The notes under the pieces were generated by a model. It was not told the origin of the DNA, made no database searches, and saw only the letters and a program-made list of their open reading frames with translations. A DNA stretch of 30,027 bases from a virus (Duplodnaviria > Heunggongvirae > Uroviricota > Caudoviricetes), in the IMG/VR virus record IMGVR_UViG_2609459840_000012, positions 1 through 30,027 of that record. One strand, given 5' to 3'. This document shows positions 27,763 through 28,956 of this stretch, piece by piece (the first letter of the stretch is position 1; the number at the start of each line of letters is the position of its first letter). The translations under genes and the position numbers were made by a program.

Positions 27763-28956
27763 ATGTCAGTACAGATTTCAGGTGTGCTGAAGGATGGTAC
27801 AGGAAAACCGGTACCGAACTGCACCATAGAGCTGAAAGCCGTGAGAACCAGCGAGACGGTGATAGTCACCACGGTGGCAGAGCACCAGCCAGGCGAAACG
27901 GGCAGTTACAGCATGCAGGTTGAGCCGGGGCGTTATCGTGTGACCTTGTGCGTGGAAGGTCGTCAGCCGGCATGCGCCGGCGAGATTGATGTCATGGCCG
28001 ACGACGAACCGGGCACCCTGAATGCCTTTCTGCTCCGTGAAACGGATGCAGCGTATTATCCTGATGCACTGAAGAAGCTGGAAGCGGCGGCGGATGAGGC
28101 TGTGCGCAGGGCGCGAGAAGCTGCTGAGAAAGCCGAAACTGCCGTGGGGCCACAGGGACTGAAAGGCGACACCGGAGCAACTGGTCCACAGGGACAGAAG
28201 GGGGACAAGGGCGATACAGGCCCGGCAGGGCCACCGGGGCCGAAAGGGGATAAAGGTGACAAGGGCGATAAGGGGGATACAGGTCCGAAAGGTGAGCAGG
28301 GCGATCCGGGCGGACCACAGGGACCGAAGGGCGACAAGGGGGATACAGGCCCGGCAGGTCCACAGGGGCCGAAAGGGGATACGGGAGCTGCAGGCCCGGC
28401 AGGGCCTCAGGGGCCAAAAGGGGATACGGGAGCCACAGGTCCGGCAGGGCCTCAGGGGCCGAAAGGGGATGCGGGAGCCGCAGGACCGGCAGGGCCTCAG
28501 GGTCCAAAAGGAGATACGGGAGCCGCAGGTCCGGCAGGACCTCAGGGGCCAAAGGGAGACACGGGAGCTACAGGTCCGGAAGGTCCGCAGGGACCGAAGG
28601 GAGATACGGGAGCTGCAGGCCCGGCAGGACCACAGGGTCCAAAAGGGGATACGGGAGACACAGGCCCGGCAGGACCACAGGGACCGTCAGGAAGTCCTGA
28701 CAGCGGACTGTTTGGTGTCGGTTCTTTTGTCCTTGCGGCATATTATGCGACGAGTTATTCCGGGGATATGGCACCGGGCTCAGCCATTGCCGGCTCATCA
28801 CTGTCTGCATGTTGCCTTTCGGATGGAACTCCTCTGATTGCTTCCGCCAGTTTGGGGGAGACCATTTTACCGGGCACGTGGCGTGCATGTGGTCCGGTAA
28901 TATGGACATCTGCTGCAGGTACAAGACAGGCAGGATTATTTCAGCGCATATCATGA
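27763..28956 (+). CDS. Side tail fibre protein: lambda Stf-like N-terminal domain, collagen-like G-X-Y region, short C-terminal domain (397 aa)
   Basis: N-terminus [26 protein letters not shown] matches the lambda Stf start; about 60 Gly-X-Y triplets; Cys-containing C-terminal 85 aa. Confidence 0.8.
28147..28692 (+). repeat. Collagen-like coding repeat (G-X-Y triplets; 45-bp DNA sub-repeats encoding [15 protein letters not shown])
   Basis: Seen directly in the translation and DNA. Confidence 0.9.

Follow-up and report, generated by a model that had tools for sequence, protein, structure and literature searches.

Collagen-like side tail fibres have been recognized in Escherichia coli prophages since the late 1990s. 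The stf-like gene considered here, located at 27763–28956 on the plus strand of a 30,027 nt stretch of Caudoviricetes DNA (IMG/VR record IMGVR_UViG_2609459840_000012, positions 1 to 30,027; the whole stretch is called the window hereafter), almost certainly encodes a further fibre of this kind, of the type designated EPclC. In the classification of Ghosh et al. (2012), the E. coli prophage collagen-like proteins fall into four classes, EPclA to EPclD (PMC3368898). EPclA and EPclB end in the PfC domain (PF06820), and PCoil is ‘often missing in EPclC’ (PMC3368898). P-EibA ORF-401 is given there as an example of EPclC, and EC55989_1078 is entered in Table 3 as EPclC*, with a length of 467 aa (PMC3368898). 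EPclA has been shown experimentally to be a trimer with a collagen circular dichroism spectrum, a Tm of 42 °C and a dumbbell shape, and its C-terminal domain trimerises and re-nucleates the helix (PMC3368898). A related fibre, Sp5 ORF67, has been placed at the tail end by immuno-electron microscopy, and in gp61 of phi24B a flexible collagen shaft is followed by a small globule at the C-terminus. In Ur-lambda, 12 copies of the Stf N-terminal domain (gpStfN) make a collar at the gpV/gpM junction, and flexible linkers bring three chains together per fibre to give four fibres (PMC12617516).

The window gene is intact, and its product is a side tail fibre of a lambda-like E. coli prophage, made up of an anchor of the lambda type, a collagen-like rod of approximately 50 nm and a small tip; fibres of this type are already known from pathogenic E. 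coli. It follows J (23642–27031) and lom (27099–27698) and precedes a small gene (28964–29572), the gene order of lambda Stf-type fibres. As read from its domains, the architecture is the one already published as the EPclC class (PMC3368898); as in that class, a PfN (PF08400) anchor and a Gly-X-Y domain are joined to a C-terminus unrelated to PfC (PF06820). Both the class and the window fibre are defined by sequence only. By the same domain comparison, the window fibre represents EPclC in its most reduced form, nearest to EPclC* but lacking PCoil. The tips of the window fibre and EC55989_1078 are 81 % identical, and the matching gene of strain 55989 is exactly 467 aa long; however, EC55989_1078 has a 116 aa PCoil, which the window fibre does not. 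P-EibA ORF-401 carries a diverged copy of the same tip domain (AVGSF...PGTWRA...LFQRIV), shares with the window fibre the G-X-P-G-G-P-X-G interruption of its collagen sequence, and is likewise followed by a DUF4376 protein, ORF-191A. The order J-lom-fibre-DUF4376 is as in the window for both EC55989_1078 and ORF-401. ORF-401 and the ED1a members differ in having two collagen domains split by Pf2 (PF03406), whereas the window fibre has a single collagen tract and no PF03406 match. EPclA- and EPclB-type fibres have the same anchor and collagen rod as the window fibre, but bear a PfC (PF06820) tip, undetected here, and a long PCoil, with EPclB also containing Pf2.

Compared with Stf/Tfa of lambda (Ur-lambda), the window locus has a homologous collar domain, the same position after J and lom, and a small assembly gene next to it. 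In contrast, lambda Stf has a coiled-coil rod and a gp37-like distal domain that binds OmpC (PMC12617516), whereas the window fibre has a collagen-like rod, an unrelated tip and a DUF4376 gene next to it. A Pfam search of the window returned no match to PF03406, to a gp37-like domain or to Caudo_TAP (the lambda Tfa family); only the anchor is shared with lambda Stf. In itself the gene is of small importance, being a short new variant of a class described in 2012. With its anchor-rod-tip layout and a rod built of repeats, it nonetheless comes close to the simplest side fibre that occurs naturally on an anchor of the lambda type, and this minimal layout makes it a convenient scaffold for fibre swaps in Ur-lambda.

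Anchor, collagen-like rod and integrity of the gene

The gene was first remarked upon in an earlier note made from the nucleotide sequence, which described a side tail fibre with a long collagen-like region; the coordinates it gave are exactly those of an ORF of 397 codons with an ATG start and a TGA stop. The product matches PHROG 366 (‘tail fiber protein’) with an E value of 1.4e-88. The identification as a side tail fibre is backed by the J-lom-stf order and by the anchor; PF08400 (phage_tail_N) spans residues 1–127 (E 3e-41), and residues 1–91 (27763–28035, plus strand) match the solved collar domain of Ur-lambda gpStfN (9e7m, chain Ta) with a phmmer E value of 2.9e-28. These matches also agree with the view that the N-terminal 130 aa are lambda Stf-like. 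Given this homology, the same collar attachment at the junction of tail tube and tip is expected for the window fibre. Residues 100–128 (28060–28146, plus strand), at the end of PF08400, form a short Ala/Glu/Lys-rich neck that stands where other EPcl proteins have a PCoil of 88–116 aa. Because of its composition, and because a trimeric bundle follows the linker in Ur-lambda, the neck is predicted to be helical and to form a short trimeric bundle.

The rod follows directly on the neck. Glycine occupies every third position from residue 129 to 312 (28147–28698, plus strand), a periodicity far beyond chance; by direct count this region of 184 aa comprises 61 Gly-X-Y triplets plus one extra residue, in keeping with the approximately 180 aa of triplets reported before. 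PF01391 (collagen triple helix) matches in four stretches (E 1.7e-27). Proline is the commonest residue at the X position, and the Y position is mostly Lys, Thr, Ala or Gln. At the standard rise of 0.286 nm per residue, the 184 residues would extend approximately 53 nm if triple-helical. The extra residue lies in the sole interruption of the triplet register, G180-D-P-G-G-P-Q-G187 (28300–28323, plus strand; found by regular-expression match), which corresponds to the conserved G-X-P-G-G-P-X-G interruption described in EPcl proteins (PMC3368898) and likely acts as a kink or hinge.

Tandem Repeats Finder detected 8.3 copies of a 45 bp unit at 28312–28686 (plus strand), with 83 % matches. Eight full units are in register, with pairwise identities of 71–93 % (mean 83 %), and each encodes one 15 aa peptide unit or a near variant of it. 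The derivation of the rod from 45 bp repeats, as proposed in the earlier note, thus holds for the distal two thirds; the proximal third (28147–28311) is not made of such units. The array is a substrate for in-frame gain and loss of units. Several ORFs of 93–193 aa overlap the repeats, at 27992–28552 (minus strand), 28056–28337 (minus strand) and 28256–28837 (plus strand), and are most likely by-products of GC-rich, stop-poor repeats rather than genes.

A megablast search of 5426 complete E. coli genomes detected the gene in 94. In 15 genomes a match at a single site covers at least 80 % of its length, the best copy being 98.6 % identical and intact, and the 267 nt that encode the tip are found in 33 genomes. 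The exact protein sequence was not found in a collection of 15 billion proteins. Twelve homologues with the same tip were read: 11 copies from E. coli genomes (JMF1, 2017.17.03CC, ST866, YZ_2_1, A8, 2012C-4221, 55989, JNEC-KY204, 14EC001, PM4-5 and O104:H4 2011C-3493) and the copy in the more distant prophage P-EibA. All 12 have an uninterrupted ORF that ends in LFQRI[SV] followed by a stop. The 11 genome copies are 367–513 aa long, with 44–76 triplets in the 10 that were counted, and P-EibA ORF-401 has 479 aa and 63 triplets. Differences in length between close relatives fall within the repeat array and are multiples of three codons (9 and 45 nt). Comparison of triplet number among relatives, suggested earlier as a check on the lability of the array, thus confirms variation in repeat number that is in frame throughout. 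Nei–Gojobori estimates of dN/dS, made against relatives with measurable divergence, are 0.19–0.54 for the tip and 0.13–0.37 for the anchor; both domains are under purifying selection.

In E. coli O104:H4 2011C-3493, the strain of the 2011 outbreak (NC_018658.1; positions 529–2067 of extract L017) the RefSeq/PGAP annotation marks the fibre gene as an incomplete pseudogene and leaves the tip part unannotated. The gene is in one frame through to GLFQRIS and a stop, with a length of 513 aa, and the flag is probably an annotation artefact of the repeat tract. A one-base difference in strain MLI104K2 was considered as a sign of a pseudogene and discounted, that assembly having many frameshifted genes.

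The order of J, lom, stf and the small downstream gene is kept in all relatives. The tip and the downstream protein remain 81–95 % identical across E. coli relatives in which the anchor falls to 57–68 %, a mosaicism from which it follows that tip and helper move as a cassette. Crossover likely takes place in the collagen tract that separates the anchor from the tip. The prophages that carry close relatives of the fibre lie at several loci, namely prfC, ssrA, potB/ykgJ, ompW and a tRNA-Ser near hyaA.

The tip domain and the downstream DUF4376 gene

The distal tip comprises residues 313–397 (28699–28953, plus strand) and ends in GLFQRIS. Its length of 85 aa is as first described; the four cysteines attributed to it are in fact three (C350, C351 and C376). 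In Pfam and NCBIfam the tip is without a match, and in PHROGs without a specific one; nor does the distal region of lambda Stf match it, which upholds the contention that the two are dissimilar. A tblastn search of 50,697 phage records gave a best E value of 0.06, i.e. no close copy in a sequenced isolated phage, and phmmer against PDB sequences returned a weak match only, to gp47 of phage Pa193. A single-sequence search of 1.84 billion representatives yielded ten matches, of which approximately five are true relatives. The other matches are multi-stretch and look spurious; the one that was read (P0006) is a long repeat protein. These first relatives come from E. coli, Citrobacter and a metagenome bin labelled Acinetobacter, are 38–48 % identical to the tip and, among those read, all end in GLFQRI[SA].

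With a profile built also from P-EibA ORF-401, Pa193 gp47 and Celeribacter P12053L gp55, 824 proteins were found at E ≤1e-3. Among the 120 of these matches that were listed, no Pfam domain other than the collagen repeat is recorded. Across 104 aligned members, one Gly of VG[ST][FY], the GTWR motif and the Arg of LFQRI are invariant, and the window tip carries the family motifs VG[ST][FY], AGS.L, GTWR and, at its extreme C-terminus, [LW][FL][QL]R[IV]. Members of the same family form the C-terminal extremity of Pseudomonas Pbunavirus fibres (307 records, Pa193 gp47 included), of Pakpunavirus JG004 ORF84 and of the gp55 fibre of the marine podovirus Celeribacter P12053L. Pa193 gp47, JG004 ORF84, P12053L gp55 and Roseobacter SIO1 gp6 share VG[ST][FY], PG..AGS.L, GTWR and the terminal LFQR[IV] with the window tip, but have neither PF08400 anchor nor collagen, are otherwise unrelated to it, and belong to myovirus or podovirus virions. 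In the cryo-electron microscopy study of Pa193, gp47 was built for residues 1–340 only, with the tip region outside the model. C350 and C376 are kept among the aligned enterobacterial collagen-linked tips. As defining features of the family, however, the cysteines were ruled out; P-EibA ORF-401 lacks both C350 and C376, and C350 varies in the wider family.

Structure prediction, the check proposed in the earlier note for this domain, gave a compact all-β fold. A first model (pLDDT 68), compared by Foldseek with BFVD, had 14 matches at E ≤1e-3, about half of them to named phage tail fibres and the rest to unnamed or uncharacterised phage proteins. A later model from a deeper alignment is predicted with confidence as a compact fold, as a monomer. 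The fold is thus one that recurs in phage fibres and is without an experimentally solved structure.

In the alignment, the tips of close relatives vary most at ASASLGET (residues 361–368; 28843–28866, plus strand), which reads ASASLGETI, ASSRVGETR, ASDNVGETR or ASGNVGETR among E. coli relatives. In the tip model these residues form a loop of lower pLDDT directly before the invariant LPGTWR, and they are the candidate receptor-contact loop, which probably sets which receptor is bound. A published host-range mutation appears to fall in the same place. In JG004, the single change A1959C in ORF84 broadens host range (Le et al., 2013; PMC3706319). Nucleotide 1959 of ORF84 is position 7214 of the GU988610.2 extract (L013), between the AGTSL and GSYRCMG...LFQKV motifs of the tip family; the mutation was thus assigned to the stretch equivalent to residues 361–368 by motif position, not by alignment. 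At 7100–7331 of the same extract the first half of the tip is in the annotated frame, and GSYRCMG...TLFQKVAA with its stop is in another, so that the deposited record seems to contain a frameshift error. A length of 685 aa was published for ORF84, which is the sum of 653 codons in the annotated frame and the next 32 codons in the other; the published version therefore probably ended in the tip-family motif. The tip domain is consistently at the distal end of fibres with unrelated N-termini. This distal position, the variable loop and the JG004 mutation all point to a receptor role, and on such comparative grounds the tip likely binds the receptor, which lends indirect support to the earlier suggestion that the distal domain sets receptor specificity.

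The gene directly 3′ of stf (28964–29572, plus strand) encodes a 202 aa protein of PHROG 1141 with a DUF4376 domain (PF14301, residues 81–188, E 8.8e-17). It starts 7 nt after the stf stop, which is overlapped by a GGAGG. The PHROGs label of the family is ‘tail fiber protein’, and no relative of the protein was found among PDB sequences. A DUF4376 partner likewise follows the fibre gene directly in Alteromonas phages V22 (gp26/gp27) and A5 (gp8/gp9), which, unlike the window prophage, are marine and not lambdoid, so that the likeness is in the downstream partner. V22 gp27 is essential for active tail fibres, whereas A5 gp9 is dispensable, the A5 fibre working without a chaperone; DUF4376 chaperones have also been suggested to be transient fibre caps (PMC7289586, PMC10579305). 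With a C-terminal PF14301 domain and a position immediately after the fibre gene, the window protein is by analogy a probable cognate chaperone of the fibre.

The pairing of tip and helper extends beyond DUF4376. The downstream proteins of the window, Pa193, JG004, P12053L and P-EibA all five have the N-terminal motif RN..I.CE..GW.P[YF]T..D..HG. Those of JG004 (gp85) and P12053L (gp54) contain PF16778 (phage tail assembly chaperone) and not DUF4376. In Pa193 (MK837009.1; positions 3736–4164 of extract L010) an unannotated ORF of 142 aa starts 2 nt after gp47 and has no Pfam match. By BLASTP the window protein matches this ORF at E 2e-6 (a single comparison), the aligned part being the N-terminal half of the Pa193 protein, and JG004 gp85 at E 0.005. 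Judging from these similarities, the Pa193 ORF is probably a missed fibre-assembly gene. The helper genes of the tip family thus differ at the Pfam level, with PF16778 or no Pfam domain in the three Pseudomonas and Celeribacter phages.

Mechanism and alternative explanations

The evidence can be assembled into a mechanism that is regarded, taken in full, as having a somewhat better than even chance of being right. Twelve chains would anchor through their N-terminal 91-residue domains as a collar where the tail tube meets the tail tip, and would join three by three at the short helical neck to give four fibres. Each rod would be a collagen-type triple helix of 61 triplets, approximately 53 nm long and kinked once a third of the way along, ending in a trimeric β tip of 85 residues. 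The DUF4376 protein would help the tip to fold and trimerise, and the folded tip would set the register of the chains and nucleate zipping of the helix from C- to N-terminus, as PfC does in EPclA. The tip would then speed adsorption by an initial, reversible contact with the cell surface, as Stf does in Ur-lambda (PMC12617516), with the variable loop at residues 361–368 deciding which receptor is bound. Unequal recombination or slippage among the 45 bp units may alter the length of the rod in five-triplet steps, and the repeats may also serve as a homologous tract for swapping tip-plus-chaperone cassettes between anchors.

Several points weigh against this mechanism. The link to Pa193 is weak at the sequence level (E 0.12 with the single sequence and 0.0044 with the profile) and draws on shared motifs together with BFVD fold matches from the lower-confidence first model. 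The tip was modelled as a monomer, but in the fibre it is presumably a trimer, whose chains are possibly intertwined. The argument from JG004 requires the correction of a frameshift in the deposited record. The authors of the phi24B work doubt that a flexible collagen shaft can relay a triggering signal to the virion; if they are right, the fibre may serve only faster reversible adsorption. The window protein and the EPclC-type tips are known from their sequences alone, and in this particular genome a Mu-like insertion in the small terminase gene (terS) probably means that the fibre is not built into infectious particles.

The main rival would divide the labour differently. Under it, the tip is a knob for trimerisation and registration only, and the DUF4376 protein stays on the fibre as the distal adhesin or cap, in the manner of T2-type gp38. 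The C-terminal domain of EPclA has indeed been shown to be a trimerisation module (PMC3368898), DUF4376 chaperones have been suggested as transient caps in the Alteromonas work and are labelled as tail fibre proteins in PHROGs, and the divergence of the downstream protein is similar to that of the tip. However, the JG004 host-range mutation affects the tip domain of the fibre gene rather than the gene after it, the E. coli relatives differ most from one another in the tip loop, and the A5 fibre is functional without its chaperone (PMC7289586, PMC10579305). On this balance the rival is thought unlikely, with something like one chance in several. Far less probable is the idea that the product is a prophage-encoded bacterial surface adhesin of the Scl/Lcl type, serving the lysogen and not the virion. 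It is prompted by partial NCBIfam matches to Lcl, SclA and SclB, by the adjoining lom, which encodes an outer-membrane protein expressed by the lysogen, and by the question raised by Ghosh et al. of a role for the bacterium itself (PMC3368898). Those matches score 115–169 bits against cut-offs of 325–500 bits and cover the Gly-X-Y region only, so that membership of the Scl1, Scl2 or Lcl families was rejected; moreover the N-terminus is a virion collar domain, neither a signal peptide nor a cell-wall anchor motif is visible in the protein sequence, and the related Sp5 ORF67 is at the tail end.

A last explanation, the least probable of all, is that the gene is a decaying pseudogene, its C-terminal domain being what truncation or a frameshift has left of a longer distal fibre of the lambda type. 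The protein is short (397 aa, compared with 774 aa for lambda Stf), PGAP calls the O104:H4 homologue incomplete and the carrying prophage is disrupted. Set against this, all 12 relatives have an intact C-terminus followed by a stop, and the remnant frameshifted in relatives that the earlier note had raised as a counter-case was not encountered. The O104:H4 gene is open in one frame, which makes the flag an artefact, the dN/dS of the tip (0.19–0.54) is that of a domain under constraint, fibres of unrelated phages naturally end in this domain, and the model from the deeper alignment is confident and compact. By these observations the pseudogene is effectively excluded, as is the bacterial adhesin by those given above.

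Returning to the tip as the likely receptor-binding end of an intact fibre, a broader proposal is put forward tentatively, as falling somewhat short of an even chance: the tip may be an E. coli representative of a very large family of receptor-binding fibre ends with cognate helper genes, and in E. coli the collagen tract would be a neutral spacer permissive of recombination. If so, the family would be common to lambdoid prophages, to groups of Pseudomonas phages that include therapy phages (Pbunavirus and Pakpunavirus) and to marine podoviruses; cassettes of tip plus helper would move between anchors, and fibre length would be tuned in five-triplet steps. The most useful by-product of the analysis is the placement of the tip in a large family that lacks a Pfam model, is paired with a helper gene and is shared with the group of the therapy phage Pa193.

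The carrying prophage

Upstream of the fibre gene, J (plus strand) encodes a J-type central tail fibre or tip attachment protein of 1129 aa; the call is based on the ORF and on its annotation as gpJ in relatives that are 89–99 % identical. lom (plus strand) encodes an Ail/Lom outer-membrane protein (PF06316, E 1.7e-115). Three terminator-like hairpins were found in this region, each by pattern match only: one upstream of lom (27048–27071), one with a T-run between lom and stf (27725–27746, plus strand) and one after the DUF4376 gene (29583–29602). With T-run hairpins on both sides, lom resembles a self-contained unit that was inserted between J and stf. Given the hairpin at 27725–27746, late transcription must read through it to reach stf.

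The right junction of prophage and chromosome lies within 29573–30027. E. coli MLI104K2 carries the same prophage, and the chromosomal sequence next to it there, in which a truncated yecE (DUF72) remnant is followed by yecD, shares 98.9 % identity with the final ~450 nt of the window. From this match, the end of the window is the right end of a lambdoid prophage in the E. coli chromosome.

Positions 1 to ~7934 of the window hold the left part of a Mu-like transposable prophage on the minus strand, with a junction at ~7933/7934. It encodes a protein with a Mu gp11 C-terminal domain (1071–1604), Gam (1750–2280), MuB (3633–4565) and a Mu-type transposase with Mu DNA-binding and Mu transposase C-terminal domains (4637–6724), all on the minus strand, together with a divergent helix-turn-helix protein, possibly a repressor (7142–7687, plus strand). 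Copies of the element in other E. coli genomes share identity up to one and the same base but adjoin different genes (P2 capsid, citD, sgrR, xdhA and paaA), the pattern that transposition would produce. The small terminase gene of the intact relative ZH48 has a length of 564 nt, and position 7935 of the window aligns 144 nt inside it; an ORF at 7962–8354 is the leftover 3′ part. Since the junction lies within terS, this gene is split in the lambdoid prophage, and the late genes have lost their connection with the region upstream. In this genome the fibre gene is intact but probably stranded in a defective prophage.

An ORF of 645 aa at 10076–12013 of the window contains both a prohead protease domain (Peptidase_S78, residues 48–153) and a major capsid domain (Phage_capsid, residues 386–635) and represents a protease-capsid fusion.

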